From: Magnetococcales bacterium
GTDB lineage: Bacteria > Pseudomonadota > Magnetococcia > Magnetococcales > JADGCL01
Length of the DNA: 64,000 nt
Reading direction: 5' to 3'
Assembly (NCBI GenBank): GCA_015229005.1
Contig: JADGCL010000001.1
Location: forward strand, 50,216-114,215
The notes below the pieces were generated by a model. The model ran no database searches. It was given only the letters and a program-made list of their open reading frames with translations, and was not told the DNA's origin. Shown here piece after piece: positions 9,082-59,922 of the stretch (position 1 is its first letter; each line of letters begins with the position of its first letter). Made by a program: the position numbers and the translations under genes.

Positions 9082-12036
9082 TCACCTCCCCCCCTCGGAG
9101 GGATTTCCCGTCTCTTCGGGAAGCTGCCAGTGGCGGATTTCCAGCTCCGGGTCGGCGAGCCCGGCCAGACTCTCGGCGTTGGAAACGATGCCGACACTGG
9201 CGCGGGCCGGGACCAGGTGACGAGCAGCGACCCGGCGCATGGATTCGACATCGACGCCGAGGACCCCATCGCGGAATCGTCGGCGAATTTCCGGACTCTT
9301 GCCGTGGTAGGCGTCGTGGAAGGCCCGCTTTGCCTCGCCAGCCGGAGACCCGGGACGATCCAGGGCGCCGATGACGCCGAGAATCGCCTCCTCCAGGGCC
9401 CGTTCGTCGTGACTGGTCGAGAAGAGCCAATCGAGTGAGCGGTCGAAATCCGCCAGCGTTTCGGCCAGGCGCGGATCGCGATAGGAATAGAAGCGGAAGG
9501 CGCCGGCATCGGCATCGAAGCCGGCGCCACTGCCATAGGCCCCGCCCTGCTCACGGACGGCCCGGTGCAGAAACCCGTTCCTGAGAAATTGAGCCAGAAC
9601 CGTGAGGGAAGGGGCGTCTTCGTGGGTGAACGGGACGACCGGATAGGCCTTGGAGACAAAATGGACCTGGGTCGGGGTTACCCAGCCTGTATGGACACGT
9701 CGTATCTTGGCGGCAAACGCAAAGGGCGCGGGTGGGGAAGAGGTCCCACCATCCCCCCACGCCGCCGCCAGTCCCTCGCGGATATTCTCGAAGCTCTCCT
9801 CTTCTCCAACCACCAGGATCTGCGGAGTGATCCGTCCCAGGATATCGCGGAGTCTTTCCAATCGCGCCGCAAAGGTCGTCAAGGCCTCCGGGTTTTGCAT
9901 CGATTGATCCAACAGTTTCAGAGATCTGAGGCCTGTCAGTCCCCCCCACCGCTCGTTCAGAGCCGCAGTCGGGCTCATGCCGCTCGAGGCCGTAGACATG
10001 GCCAGGACGTGGCCATTGTCGGTGACCCGCAATTCCGAGCTGGCCCGCATCTGCGCGATCAGCTCCCGGAGACGGGGAAGTTCGTCGAAACGGGCACTGC
10101 GGAAGGTCTCGGTCAGCAACTGGCTCAAGTGCTGGTGATTGCGCGTCAGCGCCTTGCCGGAAACGAGAAAGACTCCGCGAAACCGACCGACGTCGTCGAC
10201 CCGGCTGCGAACGGATCCCCTGGCGATGACCCCGCCACTGACCAGGGATTGCCAGGCCTGGGTCTCCAGATAGCTGCGATTACCACAGCCCACTTCGGTC
10301 AGGCACGAGGCGAAGACCGGCAGAAGATCGGTCAATTCAGGGTCGAGCTCGGGCAGATCGATGAGGAGCTGGATGTAGACCAAGCCATTGGTCGGTTGGT
10401 TGTACCAGTGGGTGGGAAGCCCTGCCACCTCCTTCAATCTCCCCTGGGCGACCGGTGGGTGTTCCGGGATGTCAGTGATCCGGAGACGCGGGAGGATTTC
10501 GGGATCATCCACCTCTCCCTGGCGTCGTTTGAGCGCTCGGCTTCGAGCCAGAATTTCTTGCCGGTCGGCTTCCGAAAGTCCCTCGGCGATGGCTGCCAGG
10601 CGTGCGCTCTCCTTCTGTCGTTTCCGCACGGCGAGGCCGGGATCGGGCATCAGGACCAGCCGCACCCGGTGAGGATTGTCGAGAAACCAGCTCCGGACCA
10701 ATCCCTGGATGAAGCCGGGCGACTGGATATCCTCCCGGAGCCGGACCAGAACCTCGTCCATTGCCAGGGCCGATACCGGGTCGCCGCCATGAAGGGCCGG
10801 GGTGAGGGCCGTCAACATCAGCTTCAGGCCATAGGGCATGCCATCACCGCCGATCTCCCGGCGGCTCATCTCCAGCTGGTGCAGCACTGCCTCCACCCGT
10901 TCCGGTTCCACCCCCTCGACCGCAACCTTTTCGAGGACCGCGAGGATCATCGCCTCCACCTGGTCGGCGTGCTCCGGTTCGGAGCCCTCGAGGCCGCAGG
11001 CGAAGACCATCTCCCGGGAGGAATCGTCGAGGCCAATGACCGGGGAGGGGGCACTCCCCAGTTCGGAGGTCTCCAGGGCCCGGAGGAGCGGCGAGGAGCT
11101 GTTGTCAAGAAGGATGCCCGTCAAGAGATGGGCCCGAAGGAGGGTGGTAAGGTCAGCGGACTTGCCGAGAAGCCAACTCAGTGTGATATAGCTCTTGGCC
11201 TGGGTCGCGCTCCCTTCGTCCACGGCGTAGGGGCGAGTTTCCCGGACGGGTGCGGCAAGGCGCCTCTCGTCGGGGACCGCGAGATCGAGCGCCAACGGTT
11301 GGAACCGGCTCAGGACCCGGGACTCGAAGACGGCCTGGTGTTCGGCAGCCCGGATCGAGCCATAGGTCAAGAAAACGGCATTCGACGGATGATAGTGGCG
11401 GCTGTGAAAGGCCTTGAGATCCTCCCAGCGCAGCTCCGGTATCTCCTCCGGATCGCCGCCGCTGTTGAACCGGTAGGTGGTGGTGGGGAAGAGGTGCCGG
11501 CTCAGTTCCTCCCAGAGGACCCGCGCCGGAGAACTCATCGCACCCTTCATTTCGTTGTAGACGACCCCACGCCAGACCAATCCCGAGCCCGGATCGTTGG
11601 GATCGGTGAATTCCACGCGGCATCCCTCCTGGGCGAAATCCAGGTAGTCCAGTCGCGGGAAAAAGGCCGCATCCAGGTAGACCTCGAGCAGATTGTCGAA
11701 ATCCTTTCGTGACTGGCTGGCGAAGGGGTAGGCCGTCCAGTCGCTCGAGGTGAAGGCGTTCATGAAGGTGCAGAGCGAACGCCGGAGCATCATGAAGAAT
11801 GGATCGCGAACCGGAAAGCGCTCGCTGCCGCAGAGAGCGGTGTGTTCCAGAACATGGGCGACCCCGCTTGAATTGGCGGGAACAGTCAAGAAGGCCACCA
11901 GGAAGGCGTTGTGATGATCCTCGGCCGCCAAGTGCAGATGCCTGGCCCCCGTCCGACGATGGCGGTAGGATTCCACCGTCAGGTTGAGGGCCTCCACTCG
12001 TTGCCGCTCGAGGCATTCAAAAGGGTCGTCGTGCAT
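9082..12036 (-). CDS. M16-family metalloprotease (PreP/insulinase-like, ~984 aa)
   Basis: HVLEHTALCGS is the inverted zinc motif HxxEH. Start set at MHDDPFE (12036). The upstream 163 aa of the track ORF are Arg/Pro-rich and non-homologous in appearance. Confidence 0.85.
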   Translation of the reverse strand: MHDDPFECLERQRVEALNLTVESYRHRRTGARHLHLAAEDHHNAFLVAFLTVPANSSGVAHVLEHTALCGSERFPVRDPFFMMLRRSLCTFMNAFTSSDWTAYPFASQSRKDFDNLLEVYLDAAFFPRLDYLDFAQEGCRVEFTDPNDPGSGLVWRGVVYNEMKGAMSSPARVLWEELSRHLFPTTTYRFNSGGDPEEIPELRWEDLKAFHSRHYHPSNAVFLTYGSIRAAEHQAVFESRVLSRFQPLALDLAVPDERRLAAPVRETRPYAVDEGSATQAKSYITLSWLLGKSADLTTLLRAHLLTGILLDNSSSPLLRALETSELGSAPSPVIGLDDSSREMVFACGLEGSEPEHADQVEAMILAVLEKVAVEGVEPERVEAVLHQLEMSRREIGGDGMPYGLKLMLTALTPALHGGDPVSALAMDEVLVRLREDIQSPGFIQGLVRSWFLDNPHRVRLVLMPDPGLAVRKRQKESARLAAIAEGLSEADRQEILARSRALKRRQGEVDDPEILPRLRITDIPEHPPVAQGRLKEVAGLPTHWYNQPTNGLVYIQLLIDLPELDPELTDLLPVFASCLTEVGCGNRSYLETQAWQSLVSGGVIARGSVRSRVDDVGRFRGVFLVSGKALTRNHQHLSQLLTETFRSARFDELPRLRELIAQMRASSELRVTDNGHVLAMSTASSGMSPTAALNERWGGLTGLRSLKLLDQSMQNPEALTTFAARLERLRDILGRITPQILVVGEEESFENIREGLAAAWGDGGTSSPPAPFAFAAKIRRVHTGWVTPTQVHFVSKAYPVVPFTHEDAPSLTVLAQFLRNGFLHRAVREQGGAYGSGAGFDADAGAFRFYSYRDPRLAETLADFDRSLDWLFSTSHDERALEEAILGVIGALDRPGSPAGEAKRAFHDAYHGKSPEIRRRFRDGVLGVDVESMRRVAARHLVPARASVGIVSNAESLAGLADPELEIRHWQLPEETGNPSEGGR

Positions 12037-20600: not shown

Positions 20601-21473
20601 TTCGAGAGGGAGAACATCAAGGGTTGGGACTTCGGTCCCTGGCAGGAGCGCCTTACCTTGACCGAGGGCGGACAGGTGATGTTCGCCTATCCCGCCCTTG
20701 AAGATTGCGGCCACGCGGTTGCTCTTCGGCTCCTCGACACGGCCCCTGCCGCCCGGGAGATGACCCGGAAAGGGATGATCCGCCTCTTCCGCCTGCAACT
20801 TGCGCAGTTGGAGAAGGGGCTGGAGAGGGGGATCGGCATCGATGACGCGCTGTGTCTTATGCACCTGCCGCTCGGCGACTGCCGGACGTTGAAACGGGCC
20901 TTGACCGACCTTGCGGTGGAGCGGACCTTTCTTGCCGGAGGGGAGCTGCCGACCGACGCCGAGGCCTTTGCCGTTCGCCTGGGCCAGGAGCGGCATAAAC
21001 TTCTCCCGGAGGCCGCCGCGATTTCACGCCTGGCACGGGAAATTCTCCAGGCCTTCCACGAGTTGCACAAGGGACTCAAGGGGGCGACCCTGCCGTCGCA
21101 GAAGCCGGTGGTGACCGAGATCCGGGAACAGCTGTCCCACCTTCTGGTGACCGACTTTTGGTCCCGCACGCCGTGGGAATGGCTGGTACACTTCCCCCGT
21201 TATCTCACCGCCGCCCGTCTCAGACTCGAGCGGAGCGCCCTGGCTCCCGTTCGGGATCGGGAACGCCAGGCCCAGCTCACCCCCCATTGGCGGCGCTGGT
21301 TGGAACGATCGGGCGGGAGCGGGCGGCAGGGACCGGAACTGGCAACCTACCGCTGGATGATCGAGGAATACCGGGTCTCCCTCTTCGCCCAGGAACTGAA
21401 GACGGTCCTCCCCGTCTCGGCCCCGAGATTGGAGAAGGCCTGGAACCAGGCGCTGCTCGGCACACCCGACTGA
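17661..21473 (+). CDS. hrpA: ATP-dependent RNA helicase HrpA (DEAH box)
   Basis: GETGSGKTTQLPK, DEAHERS, SSATL, TNVAETSITVPG and QRAGRCGR are the DEAH helicase motifs, followed by the long HrpA C-terminal region. First ATG at 17661; the track uses TTG at 17652. Confidence 0.92.
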   Translation: MPMMDQVESPPILRFPEHLPIVARRGEIREAIARHPVVILSGETGSGKTTQLPKICLEMGRGTGGLIGVTQPRRIAVKSLSAFIARDLGSALGEAVGFKIRFQDRLSAKTRIKFMTDGILLAEIQGDPRLTAYDTLIIDEAHERSLNVDFILGHLHRILPRRPDLKVIISSATLDLEKFSRHFNDAPMIEVTGRNHPVEIRYRPRERSSREGEESSPEESVGRGAEAKRGGEEKEPVDLESAVITAVDELSREEITGDILVFLPGEREIREIAGLLRQHHPPATEILPLYARLSTAEQDRIFSPTGRRRIILATNVAETSITVPGIRHVVDSGLARISRFNGRSQIQRLPIEPISRSAADQRAGRCGRLGPGIAIRLFSEEDYLARPRFTDPEVRRTSLAAVILHLKAFGLGDAESFPFVDPPSPQSLREGMRLLRELTAIGADGEITPLGRKMARLPVDPRFARMLLASDRLEALTELLILVAALSTQDPRERPEEAREAAMTAHRQHRDKVSDFTSLLRLWGFVQQGRLSAGSKNKYRRLLKENFLSYSRVREWEEVHGQLHRLVKELGLKPNDRPASYEAIHAALLPGLLGQVGMKLERREFLGVRDTRFGLFPGSGLFRRPPAWVVCGELVETSRLFGRTAARVEPEWIETAASHLVGRHYLEPHWEKKSGRVMAFEKVTFQGLTLITRRKVHYGPIDPVEARKIFLQSALVEGETTLDAPFLRHNRALIEEIEGLEHKTRRRDILIDDNELFAFFDERVPESIHTQKGFDHWRRHVERRRPRILFLDRETLMRHDLSGFDPGGFPGHLTIGEREIRLTYHFEPGSREADGVDATIPLSELGEVTALAWIFEWLVPGLLEEKIIHLLKLLPKPLRRPLVPVPRSASELTHLLRAENDPPKHALCSALGRAIHRRLGLVIPIEAWRESELPNHLRMHFSVVEDHSGRVVAQGRDLAELHQRLGLQNRESLTRIVRAPFERENIKGWDFGPWQERLTLTEGGQVMFAYPALEDCGHAVALRLLDTAPAAREMTRKGMIRLFRLQLAQLEKGLERGIGIDDALCLMHLPLGDCRTLKRALTDLAVERTFLAGGELPTDAEAFAVRLGQERHKLLPEAAAISRLAREILQAFHELHKGLKGATLPSQKPVVTEIREQLSHLLVTDFWSRTPWEWLVHFPRYLTAARLRLERSALAPVRDRERQAQLTPHWRRWLERSGGSGRQGPELATYRWMIEEYRVSLFAQELKTVLPVSAPRLEKAWNQALLGTPD

Positions 21474-30562: not shown

Positions 30563-31204
30563 TCAGGCCATCTCCACGATGGGCGGCAAAGCCAAAAGTG
30601 CTTCCAGTCCACTCTTGAATGCCTGAAAGCTGGAGGAAATGTTATTGCTTGGAACCATGTTTGCGGAAATATTCCTGGCTACATCGTGTTTTGGGAAATG
30701 GTCTTTGAAATATCCTGCCTTTTTCATTTCCCGATGCAGGGCTTCCCAGGTCCCACCCCGTATCGCATCGGGATCCTGGTATTTTTTATTGTTGCCAAAT
30801 GTTGCAGGTATGCGCGGATAGCCCTTCCGGACAGCGTCGATATCACCGAAAAACCAGGCCTCCAATTCCTCGACAACAACCCGGTTGACCACCAGAAAAT
30901 GGCCGTGATAGTCCGGCCTCTTTTTTGTAGCCAGCCCCTTATTGGATGCCATCCGTTCCAGTTTTTCTTTGAGCTCATGGCAGTCTTCTCTATCCCGATC
31001 CACCAGGATCAGTATTCCCAAATCCTTGGTCCGAGCCATGTCTTTGTATCCTTCCAACCGCTGCGAGATGTTCTTCAGGAGTTGGCTTTTTGACCCATGA
31101 TTGATGATTTTCCATTTCGCTCTGTTATCGATTATGCGTGGCAGCAGAGACTGCAACGCTAAGTCCATGGAATGCTCTTCCACATGGCAGAAAATGGTGC
31201 GCAT
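30563..31204 (-). CDS. DUF4276-like protein with Toprim-like acidic motifs (candidate nuclease effector)
   Basis: MRTIFCHVEEHS supplies Glu after strand 1. ILILVDRDRED is a DxD motif, and VVVEELEAWFFGD is also present. AGGAGG lies 7 nt upstream of ATG 31204; the track ORF starts at 31240. Confidence 0.7.
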   Translation of the reverse strand: MRTIFCHVEEHSMDLALQSLLPRIIDNRAKWKIINHGSKSQLLKNISQRLEGYKDMARTKDLGILILVDRDREDCHELKEKLERMASNKGLATKKRPDYHGHFLVVNRVVVEELEAWFFGDIDAVRKGYPRIPATFGNNKKYQDPDAIRGGTWEALHREMKKAGYFKDHFPKHDVARNISANMVPSNNISSSFQAFKSGLEALLALPPIVEMA

Positions 31205-31225
31205 GATCCGACCTCCTGGCAGCCT

Positions 31226-31371
31226 GTTGAAAAAGCCCATCCATGGACTTTTTCAACCCGGGAAGGCAAAACGCGGTTTCGCCTTCCCTCCAAAATTCAA
31301 AGGGTTACACCATCCCGTTGAATTTGGCCGGCCATCCCTGGAAGGCTCTGCCCGTTTATCAACGGGCTGCT
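31226..31371. repeat. structured repeat, copy A (fills the ATPase/DUF4276 spacer)
   Basis: An ungapped hand alignment of 31263-31371 against 54841-54949 gives 79/109 identities, with further similarity to the left. It contains four hairpins, including the 10-bp stem GTTGAAAAAG/CTTTTTCAAC. Confidence 0.65.
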
Positions 31372-32581
31372 AGCGTGGATCGCCCATGTCGAAGTAGCCC
31401 TCCATCCACAGATCGCCCAATTTGGCCCCTTTCCGCATCATCTCCCGGATACCAGGCATGTCCGCCGCTCTTTCAACCCGGGTGTAGCCATTCACGCCAC
31501 GTCCCAACGCCCAGACCTGTTCCGGTTGCATCCCATTGATGAAGAAAGGCGAATGGGTGGTGATCAGCATCTGAGATTGTCCCGATGTTTGATTGCACTC
31601 CTCGGCAAGTTCGATGAGCAACTTGGGATGCAGATAGTTTTCCGGCTCCTCCAGGCCGATCAGCGGTGACGGGTTCGGATCGTTGAGCAGCACCAAATAG
31701 GCCAGCATCTTGAGGGTGCCATCGGAAAGGTATTTAGCCTGGACGCCGGTGGAAAACGGCGCATCCCTGACCTTCAGGAGCAGGTGTCCTGATTCGAGCA
31801 TGTCCGCATCGATTCCCTCCAGGCGTGGCACACGGCGGCGCAAGGTTTCCGTGATCGTATTTAGCCTGTCCGAATGTTGTTCCTTGAGGAACTGGATAAC
31901 GTTGGCCAAGTTGTCGCCGGTTTGCGAGAGCTTTTCCACGGGTCCGGCGTCCGGGATGATACGAGCGGAGTTGGCCGAGAGGTAGGAGAGATGCCAACCG
32001 GTGATGAATTTCTTGAGAGCCATTACCCGGGGATTTTCCCTCAGGTTGCCCAAGGTTCCAACGGCCAGCAGATCTTGCGACCCCAACGATTTTTCAATCC
32101 GGCTATCCTTGAACTCCGGCTTCTCCCCGGAAATGACCTGCCCTTTGCCTTCCTTGAAATTCAGGAAATGAAAGGGTGCTGCCGGTTGCTGGCGTTTCCA
32201 GCGCATCCACTCGTGTGCAACGACAGGCCGCGCCCCTTCCTCCCGTATCTCCAGATGGTAGGTGATCCTGGGATGTTTGATGCCGGAAAAATCCGCATGT
32301 TCCCGATAGGCCAGTTCGATGACGATGTTGCCATCCTGATCCCGACTGCGCAACTCCTTGAAACGACCGCGCTTGTCCCAGGCCCGACGCAAACCTCCCT
32401 CCTGGAAGCATTCGGAAAGAAAGGCAAACACATCGAACACGGTGGATTTGCCACTGCCATTGGCGCCGAGCAAGACGGTCAGGGAGGGTAGACTTTTGAA
32501 AGTCACATCTCGCAGGGCACGATAATTTTTCACCGTCATCCGCTCGATGCGGGATGGAGACTGGTCGTTCTGTTGATTCAT
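31370..32581 (-). CDS. ABC/SMC-like ATPase (AAA_15/AAA_21-type)
   Basis: GANGSGKST is Walker [13 protein letters not shown] is signature-like, [13 protein letters not shown] is Walker B and ITTHSP is the H-loop. GGAGA RBS. Confidence 0.85.
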
Positions 32582-40813: not shown

Positions 40814-40849
40814 GTGTCTCCTCACTTGTTCCAGGTATCTGGTGGTCTA

Positions 40850-40891
40850 AAAATCCGTATCCGTGTGGTCAGAAAATCCGTATCTCCGTGT
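40850..40891. repeat. tandem imperfect repeat AAAATCCGTATC(TC)CCGTGT x2 in the glnA leader
   Basis: Copies at 40850-40866 and 40873-40891 were read directly. They lie 37-78 nt upstream of the glnA ATG. Confidence 0.5.
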
Positions 40892-40978
40892 CGGCGATCC
40901 GGCGGGCGGAGCTCCGAAAACCGCCCCCCCACGCCATTCCGCCCTTGCAACAAACGCCGCTCCGAGCCTTTCTGCGGG

Positions 40979-41005
40979 CCGATTCAACCGGACCGATTCA
41001 ACCGG
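40979..41005. repeat. tandem exact repeat CCGATTCAACCGG x2
   Basis: Copies at 40979-40991 and 40993-41005 were read directly, in the amt-glnA spacer. Confidence 0.5.
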
Positions 41006-41245
41006 TGAAAAGCCAAGCCGGACGCTGCGTCCCCGACCGGAGCCAACAGGCTGCGCCCGCCCCGTCGACCGCGCCCGGCCTACCCGACCGACAGCCCTTG
41101 CCGGGGCTACAGGACGAGGCCGGCGCCCCATCTCCCCGATGATCACCCATAACCCGTTGAAAATGCAAGGATTGGGAAACACACCTCCGCTGCAGCGGTC
41201 GGGGAGGGGATGGGCACGACCCTCCCCGACCGCTGCCAGTATGAA

Positions 41246-51706: not shown

Positions 51707-51982
51707 ACCGGCGGGTTCTTGCAGGATGGGCACCCTTCACTGAAGATGGCATCAGGAGAGGCCTGGGGAGTCCGAGGGGGAGGCTCCGTCTCTCCCCCCT
51801 GCGGGGGGATTCGGGGACGAAGCCCCTAAAACAACGGGATAGCATCCTTCACCCCAACGGGATGACGAAGCCAAGCAGAGAGCCTCTGTCATCCCGCCGG
51901 GAGGGGGAGCGATACCAAGGGTTCGACGCGTCGTGTCCCGAAACGGGACGCGACGCGCCTTGGCGCGGCCGCGCTGCTTGAA

Positions 51983-54388: not shown

Positions 54389-54745
54389 TCACTCCTTTCC
54401 CGCTTTACTCATCGCGAGAAACGCTTTCAGGTTTTTTTCCACCAACTCGTTCAGTTCCAACTTGCTCTGGGTGAGCGTTTCCATGGCCTGTTTCGCGTGG
54501 CCAATCATCAGTTCCCCCAGTTCCGAGGCCATATCCGCCTGATCGACCATGGCCTCCTTGACGTCCTTGGCGCCACTGATCTTGCGGATTTGTTTGACCC
54601 CGGCACTCATGCAGCTCCCGGCCACTTCAAGCTGTTGCTTGGCCAGGTTCTGCACCGTTCGGTCGTTGATCTCCTGGAGCCGGAGCATGGAGTCCAGCAC
54701 CTTTTTGGTCACATCGGTCATCTGCTCGGCCAGCTTGCTGTCCAT
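54389..54745 (-). CDS. phaP: phasin family protein
   Basis: A 118-aa helical protein with a phasin-like sequence (VLDSMLRLQEINDRTVQNLAKQQLE...). It lies within the pha cluster. Confidence 0.7.
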   Translation of the reverse strand: MDSKLAEQMTDVTKKVLDSMLRLQEINDRTVQNLAKQQLEVAGSCMSAGVKQIRKISGAKDVKEAMVDQADMASELGELMIGHAKQAMETLTQSKLELNELVEKNLKAFLAMSKAGKE

Positions 54746-54804
54746 GGGGCAACTCCCTCAGAGTGAACATACCGGGATTCGGCGGAACGCTTGTTCAGAT
54801 GGTC

Positions 54805-54949
54805 GAAAGCGGTCCATCCGTGGACCCTCTCAGCCCGAGAGAGGCAAAACCCAGTTCTGCCCCTCCTTCCAAATTCAGCAGGCCATGCCGCCTCGTTGAA
54901 TTTGACCGGCCATCCCAGGCCGGTGCAGCCCGCTCATCAACGGCCTGCT
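54805..54949. repeat. structured repeat, copy B (phaR-phaP spacer)
   Basis: Homologous to 31226-31371, with 79/109 identities in the ungapped core. The helices are retained with compensatory changes. Confidence 0.65.
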
Positions 54950-54956
54950 GTGCTGC

Positions 54957-54979
54957 GCTGCAATATATTGCATTGCAGC
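54957..54979. promoter_or_regulatory. TGCA-rich palindrome (candidate PhaR operator) upstream of phaP
   Basis: The element reads GCTGCAATATATTGCATTGCAGC. It contains a perfect 14-bp palindrome TGCAATATATTGCA (54959-54972) and 8-bp outer arms GCTGCAAT/ATTGCAGC. Confidence 0.35.
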
Positions 54980-55023
54980 ATAAGGTAGTGCTACCCGACT
55001 GTCAAAGCTTTTTTCCGGATCCC

Positions 55024-55506
55024 TCACTCAGGGCTGGAACTTCCTTTCTGGTTGCCTTCCGGAAAGAGGCTTTCCTGCCAAGTCTTCCAAAGGGCGAAGT
55101 GGCGTTCGGCCATTTCGTGGATGATGGCCAGTGGGGTGGCTGCGGTGGCGGCCAGGGGAGCCTGCAACTGCTTGCGAAAGACCGCCTGCTGGTCGACGAA
55201 GAGCAGGAGACTTTTTTCCAGATAGTCGGTCAGGCTCGATTGAAGGGCGTCCCCCTGGAAATGGATGAGTCCCGACAGAAGGGCATTGCTGAACAGCGGC
55301 ATGCCTTTCTCCTCCTGCTCACTGATGATCTGGAGCAGGATGCCCCGGGTGATGTCCTCGCCGGTCTGATTGTCCACCACCTGGAAGGGGGTCTGGGCCA
55401 GGACCAGGGCCCTCACTCCCTCCAAGGTGATATACTGACTCGTGGCCGTGTCGTAGAGGCGCCGGTTGGGGTATTTCTTGATGATCCGCGGCTCTTCCAT
55501 TCCCAT
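55024..55506 (-). CDS. phaR: polyhydroxyalkanoate synthesis repressor
   Basis: IKKYPNRRLYDTATSQYITLEGV...ITRGILLQIISEQE is the canonical PhaR N-terminal region. Confidence 0.9.
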   Translation of the reverse strand: MGMEEPRIIKKYPNRRLYDTATSQYITLEGVRALVLAQTPFQVVDNQTGEDITRGILLQIISEQEEKGMPLFSNALLSGLIHFQGDALQSSLTDYLEKSLLLFVDQQAVFRKQLQAPLAATAATPLAIIHEMAERHFALWKTWQESLFPEGNQKGSSSPE

Positions 55507-58218: not shown

Positions 58219-59922
58219 TCAGTTTTCGTAGCGGCGGATCAGCATGTCGGTTATGTGCAACCCGCTGGCCATGCGATCCCTGGCGGCAACCGCCTCGGCG
58301 GGACTCTCGAAGAGACCGGCGGTGACCCGTGTCGCTGGCTGTCCGGCGAGGTCGACCTGCTGGAGGAATACGGGTATTCCCAATTTTCTTACCCCCTCCA
58401 TGAAGGCATCAAGTCGCCCCACCTCGCGGAACAGGGCGACGTAAACCATATATCGTTCGTGAGCCAACTTGAGCCCGCGCAGGGCGGCGCTGTTGACCGG
58501 GTCGACGGCCAGGACCCTGCGAAACATCTCCCTGGCTTTTTCTCCCGACTCCAGATTGGGGCTTGTCCGGGTACGTGGGGATTGCAACCAGCCGTACCCT
58601 TCTGCCAACCAACGCGAGATTTCAGGCTGTTCAACTTCTTCCCCGGGTTGGACTGCCCCTCCCGCCCTTTCGCTCCCCTCTGCCTCAGTGGCATTGTTGC
58701 CGTCTGCGGCCTGTTCGGGAGGGTGCCCGGCGGAGCCTTCCTCCTCCTCGGACGACTCCGTCCCGGGCAAGGCGGCCTTGGATATTGCAGCCCAGGTTGC
58801 GGCCACGGACGATTGATCCGCTGTCTTCCCCCCGGTCTCCCGGGGAGCTTTGGCTGCATCGTCATCGGGCGCGACTTTGGTTGCATCGCCCGCTGGGGTA
58901 ACCTTGGCCGTATTGGCGGCGGACGCGACTTTGGCCGAATCGGTGGCCCTGGGGGCGGGCTTGGACTCCTCGGGGGAGGAAGCGCTCTCTTGGGGGCTCG
59001 CCGGACCCGGAGATTCCTCCATGGGGAGTGGGGCAGCCACTGGCCCGGGGGGAGGAAGGTCGAGGCCGAGGGAGGGGGTGGCGCCTGCGGCAAAGGGCTC
59101 CGAGGGCATGGCCTCGCGGCCATCGGAGGGAGCCGCTGAATCGGGGGAGGAAGGAGGACCTGAAACCGACTCTTCCGCTTTCGAGAGCGCCGGTGACGGG
59201 GCATCTTCGGTCTTGGCTGCGATGTCCGAACCCTCCGGGGGAGTCGCAGGTTCCGGGCTATCTTTGGTCGGGGTGGGGACCCCTTTGGTGGAGGGGGGCG
59301 TTGAGCTCTCCTCCCCGGAGGCCAGCAACACCACCTTGCCGCCCCAGTCGCGGTCGACGATGTCGATATAGCCGATCTCCTCCCGGAAGCCGGGGTGGGA
59401 CACCTTCACCGGATAGCGACCGGGAGGAAGCTCCATGCCCCGTCGGTAGGGCTCCGGGTAGGTGAGGAGGCTGACCTCGGCCTCCTCCGGCACTGTGATG
59501 ATCGTGAGATGGAATCGGGGCGAATCGCTTCCGCCGGGGTGGGCATCTCCCGTTTGCTCCGGCGTGACGGCGAGACGATCCAGGGCGAGATGAAGCTCGC
59601 TGACCCGGTTCTCGTGGATCCGAACGATCTTCTCCAGAGGCTGGTATCCCGGAAGGCTGGCACGGACTCTGACGCGTCCGGCCGGAACCCCGTCCAGTGT
59701 CAGCGGGGCCTTGCCCAGGGGTCTGTCGTCGACGTGGATCTCTGCCGCATCCGGGAGGGTGGTGACCGCGAGGCCGCCGGTGAGGCCCGGGCCGACCCCA
59801 GCGGGATCTGCCATTTCCCCACTCCGGAAGAGGAAAATGCCGCAGAGGGCGATGACCGCGACCAAGAGCGCCGTCAGGGGGAGAACAAAGCTGCGCAATC
59901 GGGGGGGGAAGTCCGGAAACAT
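58219..59922 (-). CDS. membrane-anchored PEGA-domain / SPOR-domain protein with a long Pro/Ala/Ser/Glu linker
   Basis: An N-terminal TM segment is followed by PEGA-like TLPDAAEIHVDDRPLGKAPL...VRVRASLPGYQP. The C-terminus YMVYVALFRE...ATRVTAGLFESPAEA resembles a SPOR domain. Confidence 0.6.
   Translation of the reverse strand: MFPDFPPRLRSFVLPLTALLVAVIALCGIFLFRSGEMADPAGVGPGLTGGLAVTTLPDAAEIHVDDRPLGKAPLTLDGVPAGRVRVRASLPGYQPLEKIVRIHENRVSELHLALDRLAVTPEQTGDAHPGGSDSPRFHLTIITVPEEAEVSLLTYPEPYRRGMELPPGRYPVKVSHPGFREEIGYIDIVDRDWGGKVVLLASGEESSTPPSTKGVPTPTKDSPEPATPPEGSDIAAKTEDAPSPALSKAEESVSGPPSSPDSAAPSDGREAMPSEPFAAGATPSLGLDLPPPGPVAAPLPMEESPGPASPQESASSPEESKPAPRATDSAKVASAANTAKVTPAGDATKVAPDDDAAKAPRETGGKTADQSSVAATWAAISKAALPGTESSEEEEGSAGHPPEQAADGNNATEAEGSERAGGAVQPGEEVEQPEISRWLAEGYGWLQSPRTRTSPNLESGEKAREMFRRVLAVDPVNSAALRGLKLAHERYMVYVALFREVGRLDAFMEGVRKLGIPVFLQQVDLAGQPATRVTAGLFESPAEAVAARDRMASGLHITDMLIRRYEN

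Follow-up and report, generated by a model that had tools for sequence, protein, structure and literature searches.

A multi-hairpin non-coding element in a candidate defence cassette and in the phaP leader of a Magnetococcales genome

MITEs, such as Correia/NEMIS in Neisseria, are small non-coding elements that are inserted close to genes and co-transcribed with them. The ERIC/IRU sequences of enterobacteria have a 127-bp consensus, form one long hairpin and occur in tens to hundreds of copies, and the REP, BIME and REPIN sequences are mobilised by RAYT (Y1) transposases and defined by their high copy number. Here we describe a structured element present in two copies, A and B, in the window, as we call the whole stretch of 64,000 nt of Magnetococcales DNA that was analysed, and compare it with these families.

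The element resembles MITEs in its size of about 150 nt, its lack of coding capacity, its precise insertion near genes with which it would be co-transcribed, the 11-nt imperfect terminal inverted repeat of copy A, and the contrast of filled and empty sites at both loci against related genomes. It differs from them in the weakness of that repeat in copy B, in showing neither a clear target-site duplication nor an identified cognate insertion sequence, in the 26–29% divergence of its copies and in its apparently very low copy number. With ERIC/IRU it shares the character of a non-coding imperfect palindrome of about 130–150 nt in transcribed intergenic spacers of operons or untranslated regions, the presence or absence at orthologous sites, and the maintenance of stem-loops among diverged copies. 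However, it consists of four or five tandem hairpins, is known in two copies, belongs to a Magnetococcales host and has no sequence likeness by eye; ERIC/IRU is taken here as a functional analogue only. With REP and BIME sequences it has in common that short palindromic units are clustered in transcribed extragenic DNA and seem to be modular, as the string CCAYGGATGG recurs in a multi-hairpin unit of another genome, but a high copy number was not seen and no GTAG-type head was recognised. It resembles riboswitches and other leaders in that a structured RNA lies sense to the gene, within a 5′ leader or between two cistrons. On the other hand, it is not found upstream of orthologues (it is absent from the phaP leaders of the related loci L090 and L091 and from five related cassettes), its gene contexts are unrelated, and it shows no conserved alternative fold and no Rfam match.

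Sequence and structure of the two copies

The coordinates of the element, of its hairpins and of the neighbouring genes are collected in Table 1. A sequence-only reading of the window had reported that the spacer sequence of the ATPase/DUF4276 cassette has a second copy, and this copy is indeed present at about 54800–54950. The 165-nt gap from the ATPase stop codon (TAG) to the DUF4276 ATG was confirmed as well, and the ungapped comparison of 31263–31371 with 54841–54949 gives exactly the 79 identities in 109 positions that had been counted. The span first proposed, 31226–31371, corresponds to a real element, but its edges shift to those of Table 1 when copy A is set against related cassettes.

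Table 1. Positions, in the window, of the element, its hairpins and its surroundings
Feature	Position	Strand	Remarks
ATPase gene (AAA_21/AAA_15)	31370–32581	−	upstream gene of the cassette
ATPase stop codon (TAG)	31370–31372	−	adjoins the 5′ end of copy A; codon position shared by L092, L093 and L094
Copy A	31218–31369	−	152 nt; edges from alignment to the element-free cassettes L092, L093, L094 and L096–L098
DUF4276 ribosome-binding site and start	31202–31217	−	AGGAGGTCGGATC ATG, directly 3′ of copy A; TAG GAGGT...ATG in L092 and L093
DUF4276 gene	30563–31204	−	downstream gene of the cassette
phaR	55024–55506	−	gene upstream of copy B
phaP promoter-like site	54977–55005	−	TTGACA-17-TATGCT, upstream of copy B; 10/12 consensus matches, 0.2 expected
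TGC-rich operator-like repeats	54951–54983	−	TGCTGCAATGCAAT ATATTGCAGCGCA, between the −10 hexamer and copy B
Copy B	54800–54950	−	about 150 nt, in the phaP 5′ leader; 3′ boundary approximate
phaP (phasin)	54389–54745	−	downstream of copy B; followed by the class III synthase genes phaE and phaC
Conserved core	31318–31338 (A), 54896–54916 (B)	−	plus strand TTGAATTTGGCCGGCCATCCC, minus strand GGGATGGCCGGCCAAATTCAA; 20/21 bases identical
H1	31350–31367 (A), 54928–54945 (B)	−	GCCCGTT GATA AACGGGC in A; from folds and pair table
H2	54906–54923 (B)	−	copy B only, CCGGCC TGGGAT GGCCGG; from fold
H3	31290–31327 (A), 54869–54905 (B)	−	CCAAATTCAA...TTGAATTTTGG and inner stem in A
H4	31260–31288 (A), 54838–54866 (B)	−	GGGAAGGCGAAAC CGC GTTTTGCCTTCCC in A, 13 pairs
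H5	31226–31257 (A), 54802–54834 (B)	−	GTTGAAAAAGTCCA TGGA TGGGCTTTTTCAAC in A

The two copies are about 71–74% identical, that is, 26–29% diverged (blastn E = 3e-21), and a structure-aware alignment has 105 identical columns out of 148, with four one-base indels. Of the 39 substitutions, which affect each of the four bases (with A>G 12, U>C 8, G>A 6 and C>U 5 among them), 31 are transitions. A covariance model, R1, scores copy A at 182.9 bits and copy B at 164.7 bits. Both copies lie in the same sense, which is sense to the flanking minus-strand genes, with copy A ending 13 nt before the DUF4276 ATG and copy B about 55 nt before that of phaP. The GC content of each copy (0.54 in A, 0.62 in B) equals that of its own neighbourhood. 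The most conserved part is a core of 21 nt, partly unpaired and partly the 5′ arm of H3; the block TTGAATTTG(G/A)CCGGCCATCCC is found nowhere in the window but at its two positions, against 0.02 matches expected from shuffles.

A Magnetococcales metagenome-assembled genome (MAG), GCA_015229105.1, encodes a PhaP and an ATPase identical to those of the window and carries identical copies of the element. Its contigs are 99.7–99.85% identical to the window. In the comparison with the loci L004, L005 and L095, the difference amounts to 0.15–0.3%, with one indel per aligned block, so the window represents another assembly or strain of this species.

Four hairpins are common to both copies (H1, H3 with its inner stem, H4 and H5). 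The fifth, H2, is restricted to copy B; its site in copy A reads CCTTCC, and therefore the stem cannot form there. The H3 hairpin, first described as CCAAATTCA...TGAATTTGG, and the GCCCGTT/AACGGGC hairpin (H1) were found in both copies, as had been stated. The compensatory change from GGAAGGC/GCCTTCC to GAGAGGC/GCCCCTC also proved to be real: in H4, a G-C pair becomes A-U and the neighbouring A-U pair becomes G-C. Among the 13 pairs of this hairpin, seven are identical, four have one-sided changes that keep the pairing via G-U, two are double compensatory and none is broken. The inner stem of H3 contains two double compensatory pairs, and H5 has two of these, three one-sided changes and one broken pair.

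Over all 48 aligned pairs, 29 are identical, nine are changed on one side with pairing kept via G-U, six are double compensatory and four are broken. Copy B retains 45 of the 48 pairs, compared with 36.6 ± 2.1 expected when the substitutions are reshuffled (P < 2e-5), and the six double changes compare with 2.7 expected (P = 0.026); these counts come from a structural alignment of two sequences only, made by hand with the helices in view, which gives some favour to structure. In a plain MAFFT alignment, 93.6% of the cells are paired, against 32–61% with the partners slid.

Each copy folds far better than its shuffles on either strand (z = −4.9 to −5.3). The minus strand, sense to the genes, is the more stable, with fold energies of −81.6 and −85.4 kcal/mol against about −70 for the plus strand; for the consensus fold of both copies the corresponding values are −57.7 and −34.0 kcal/mol. 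The minus strand has nine G-U cells and the plus strand has three (one-sided binomial P ~0.07), a strand bias that is suggestive, not decisive. In the minimum-energy fold of copy A, and in this copy only, a CCUUC of the element pairs with the GGAGG ribosome-binding site of DUF4276. The alternative pairing that had been proposed for GCCTTCC is possible in copy A, where the second GGAAGGC string lies at 31340–31346 and not at 31341–31347. Copy B reads ACCGGCC at the GCCTTCC site, so the proposed switch is not conserved.

A search of Rfam 15 at gathering thresholds returned no family at either copy, in agreement with the earlier remark that the element was not recognised as a known RNA family, and permissive scans gave only chance-level matches, with E of at least 0.29. 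The only Rfam family above threshold in the window is a cobalamin riboswitch aptamer (RF00174; 49613–49824, minus strand; 75.1 bits, E = 1e-16). Consensus scans found no intrinsic terminator in either copy, no promoter at copy A, and no outward-facing promoter or terminator within the element.

Protein coding was rejected on the one-base indels between the copies, the stops in most frames and the distribution of substitutions over codon positions (8/13/9). Across the core, an open reading frame of 12 codons (31299–31337 and 54877–54915, minus strand; MAGQIQRDGVTL in A and MAGQIQRGGMAC in B, MAGQIQR...) has shared start and stop positions, and its first seven codons differ by only two synonymous changes. 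It is probably a chance frame, as it has no ribosome-binding site at usable spacing. No tRNA or tmRNA origin was found. An integron attC site was discarded because the polarity of H5 (GTTGAAA...TTTCAAC) is opposite to RYYYAAC...GTTRRRY, the flanking phaR and phaP belong to the core genes, and there was no sign of an integrase. A DGR TR/VR pair was discarded because the substitutions are not confined to adenine and hit all four bases, and both copies are non-coding.

The two sites and their counterparts in related genomes

The contexts of the two copies are unrelated, being a candidate defence cassette in one case and a PHA granule operon in the other. PADLOC assigns the ATPase/DUF4276 pair to the candidate defence system HEC-01 (HEC-01A, 6e-152; HEC-01B, 3e-74). 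In five related Magnetococcales cassettes (L092, L093, L094, L096/L097 and L098, of which L096/L097 and L098 come from two related samples), with ATPases 76–83% identical, the gap from stop to start is only 8–24 nt. Their junctions read TAG GAGGTGGAAAA ATG, against TAG, 152 nt and AGGAGGTCGGATC ATG in the window. Copy A is thus an insertion, since its 152 nt sit exactly between the TAG and the ribosome-binding site of a cassette whose relatives have the short gap; by comparison with these relatives, both the stop codon and the ribosome-binding site belong to the ancestral sequence.

The HEC-01 cassette stands in a different neighbourhood in every Magnetococcales genome examined (window 30563–32581; L092–L094, L096–L098). 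In the window it is GC-poor, with 0.49–0.56 against 0.62–0.68 for most of the sequence. Its varied neighbourhoods and low GC content suggest a mobile defence cassette.

At the site of copy B, the phaP promoter and two TGC-rich repeats (TGCTGCAnCGCAAT / ATGCTGCAnCGCA) are kept in three Magnetococcales genomes, namely the window, L090 (about 9900–9960) and L091 (about 215–275). These repeats probably represent the PhaR operator. In L090 and L091, whose PhaP proteins are 63% and 59% identical to that of the window, the phaR-phaP spacer contains the A-rich tract, the promoter and the TGC-rich repeats, and the element is absent from both. As these two spacers keep TTGACA-N17-TATGCT and the TGC-rich repeats without the element, copy B is also an insertion relative to them, with the limit that the relatives at this site are distant (PhaP 59–63% identity). 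The leader of phaP is about 45 nt long in L090, about 120 nt in L091 and about 225 nt in the window. With a predicted transcription start at about 54970, copy B would make up about 150 nt of the latter. Where the window has copy B, L091 carries a different GC-rich segment of about 75 nt (about 275–330), which is not unusually stable when folded, and the phaP leader is for this reason regarded as a variable region.

Because both sites are empty in relatives, the element is not a conserved leader of either gene. The option of a conserved cis-regulatory leader, one of the three in the sequence-only reading, is therefore not sustained: the downstream genes are unrelated, and the relatives keep the phaP promoter without the element.

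Termini and search for further copies

The ends of copy A form an imperfect inverted repeat, CAGCCCGTTGA / TCAACAGGCTG, with 10 matches in 11 positions, and that of copy B, CAGGCCGTTGA / TCGACCATCTG, is degenerate (7/11). Part of the terminal-repeat match stems from the arms of an internal GTTGA hairpin. The possible target duplication of copy A is AG, or CTAG/CCAG with one mismatch; nothing convincing was found for copy B, where the empty sites are too diverged. The inverted repeat of copy A suggests a transposable origin, and the weak inverted repeat of copy B and the ambiguous target duplication are the reasons why the element is not filed here as a proven MITE. The terminus motif has no further exact match in the window, and its matches with three mismatches are scattered, none of them like an end of the element. 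No RAYT gene was seen among the annotated genes of the window, and no partner transposase or cognate insertion sequence was identified within the sequence examined.

The copy number is two in about 73 kb of the host genome. Searches of the window with blastn, nhmmer and R1 gave no third copy, nor did R1 find one in L095, which adds 9 kb of the host genome, or in nine loci that cover about 100 kb of other Magnetococcales genomes. Single hairpins do not recur elsewhere within some 170 kb of Magnetococcales sequence; beyond the two copies, R1 hairpins matched only their own reverse strands and, weakly, one place in L096/L097. Exact scans with the core returned three matches in GTDB species genomes, 33 in JGI metagenomes and 51 in IMG/VR, none similar beyond the seed and hence ascribed to chance, the GTDB scan being a weak negative, as the host species' own genome may be masked or absent there. 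A chimeric six-frame peptide query, aimed at spurious ORFs on other copies, had no match at E ≤ 10, and the plasmid and phage collections had no blastn match. The sequence-only reading had held that finding these two copies alone would count against its proposal; further copies were looked for, none appeared in the sequence searched, and the objection stands.

Two weak R1 matches in the window, at 40969–41112 and 51740–51840, were rejected as unrelated and are not unusually structured (z ~0). The former falls in a divergent intergenic region of about 380 nt (40826–41209), which contains the direct repeat CGATTCAACCGGA twice (40978–41003).

Origin of the element and a possible relative

On balance, we lean towards reading the element, with its length of about 150 nt, as a palindromic repeat that is non-coding, non-autonomous and restricted to one lineage, similar to MITE, ERIC and BIME sequences. 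Among the options raised from the sequence alone, a REP-like or MITE-like repeat fits best, because the element is absent from both equivalent sites in relatives and both copies are then insertions. Such a repeat, which is or was mobile, would have landed in two unrelated permissive transcribed spacers of one Magnetococcales genome: between stop codon and ribosome-binding site in the candidate HEC-01 operon (copy A), and between the promoter/operator and the ribosome-binding site of phaP (copy B). The host mRNAs would carry it as a passenger, folded into four or five stable stem-loops, and its hairpins may have been kept for the needs of the mobilising enzyme, or be tolerated or useful in the RNA. 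In the cassette, the gap would have grown from about 10 nt to 165 nt, and tight translational coupling was probably lost; for phaP, the lengthening of the leader to about 225 nt would be likely to have side effects. Against a mobile repeat stand the only two copies found in the sequence searched, the divergence of 26–29%, which is unlike that of a recently active MITE, the weak inverted repeat of copy B, the ambiguous target duplication and the failure to identify a partner transposase. Selection acting on the resident RNA would likewise account for the compensated hairpins and for the G-U bias towards the transcribed strand.

This last explanation, a functional cis-acting RNA module copied once between the sites, whose stem-loops stabilise or process the mRNA or tune downstream translation, is the main rival, but we hold it to be rather unlikely. 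The sense orientation of both copies just upstream of a start codon would agree with it, as would the far better consensus fold of the transcribed strand (−57.7 against −34.0 kcal/mol), the nine G-U cells against three, and the 45 of 48 pairs kept by copy B despite 26–29% divergence. Further points in its favour are that each copy matches its surroundings in GC content (0.54 and 0.62), which points to long residence, that the minimum-energy fold of copy A pairs CCUUC with the GGAGG of the ribosome-binding site, and that only two copies were found. However, the downstream genes are functionally unrelated, relatives are free of the element at both sites, and the element matches no riboswitch or leader family. 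In addition, the pairing with the ribosome-binding site and the GCCTTCC alternatives exist only in copy A, and the strand bias is not significant (P ~0.07) and could also be produced by C-to-T deamination of the coding strand. A mobile repeat and RNA selection in place are not mutually exclusive.

The detection of only two copies, with no clear target-site duplication and no transposase found, would also be consistent with a one-off ectopic duplication by illegitimate recombination or repair, with neither function nor mobility. We consider this improbable: neutral decay to 71–74% identity should destroy the helices, yet pairing is retained far above expectation (P < 2e-5); one copy should be ancestral, yet both orthologous sites are empty in every relative examined, though these are distant; and the cut falls exactly between a stop codon and a ribosome-binding site. 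Least probable of all is an independently transcribed small RNA gene in two paralogous copies, which we regard as very unlikely in spite of the strong structure, the length of about 150 nt and the good sigma-70-like promoter at a short distance upstream of copy B. This site is the promoter of phaP, conserved also in element-free relatives, and copy A begins at the ATPase stop codon inside an operon and lacks a promoter. Neither copy has an intrinsic terminator or an Rfam match. The free-standing small RNA considered in the sequence-only reading thus found no support, copy A having no promoter of its own and neither copy a terminator.

If the element is a mobile palindromic repeat, a small structured repeat family would be added to the Magnetococcales, an order known almost only from MAGs. 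It would provide a clean natural case of such an element inserted in a candidate defence operon, precisely where a stop codon is followed by the next ribosome-binding site, and in the leader of the gene for the principal PHA granule protein. In annotation, the cassette's 165-nt gap and the long phaP leader would then be insertions and not conserved regulatory regions. Should the hairpins turn out to be under selection as RNA, the element would merit testing as a portable module that modifies expression. In either reading, it is an unsurprising kind of object for bacterial genomics.

A more speculative proposal, to which we give little credence, is that the host retains the element for a function at the RNA level, the element being either a structured RNA module that is portable or a single-strand transposon that is guided by hairpins and lacks classical inverted repeats and target duplications. 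Such a function might be the protection of the 5′ end of the phaP mRNA. At copy A it might be the uncoupling or gating of translation of the DUF4276 effector from that of its ATPase partner, which the CCUUC-GGAGG pairing would fit. The hairpin shared with L096/L097 would then mark an undescribed modular repeat superfamily in Magnetococcales.

This hairpin belongs to the only notable additional match of R1 (17.9 bits, rough E ~0.002), located in L096/L097 in the spacer upstream of another HEC-01 cassette. The sequence there is a different multi-hairpin unit of 144 nt from another genome of Magnetococcales type, present twice in tandem (99% identical) in L097 (9471–9766) and once in L096 (9615–9790). 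Its hairpin GGGCCATGGATGGCCC and the flanks resemble H5 (GTCCATGGATGGGC in A, GGTCCACGGATGGACC in B), the unit and the element having a near-identical GGCCATGGATGGCC hairpin, with the apical CCAYGGATGG of H5. Among the Magnetococcales loci, CCAYGGATGG is confined to the two copies and L096/L097. This one short hairpin hints at modular palindromic repeats in the order Magnetococcales, and the 144-nt unit, as a comparable element in another genome, counts in favour of the mobile-repeat reading.

A gene for a Y1_Tnp protein (PF01797, IS200/RAYT-type) is located in L096/L097 at 20830–21200, about 11 kb from the 144-nt unit. Tandem repetition of another kind was observed in the window itself, where three units of 27 nt, 64–72% identical, lie at 58842–58942 and, as mapped from L004, appear to be inside a gene for a PEGA/SPOR-domain protein.
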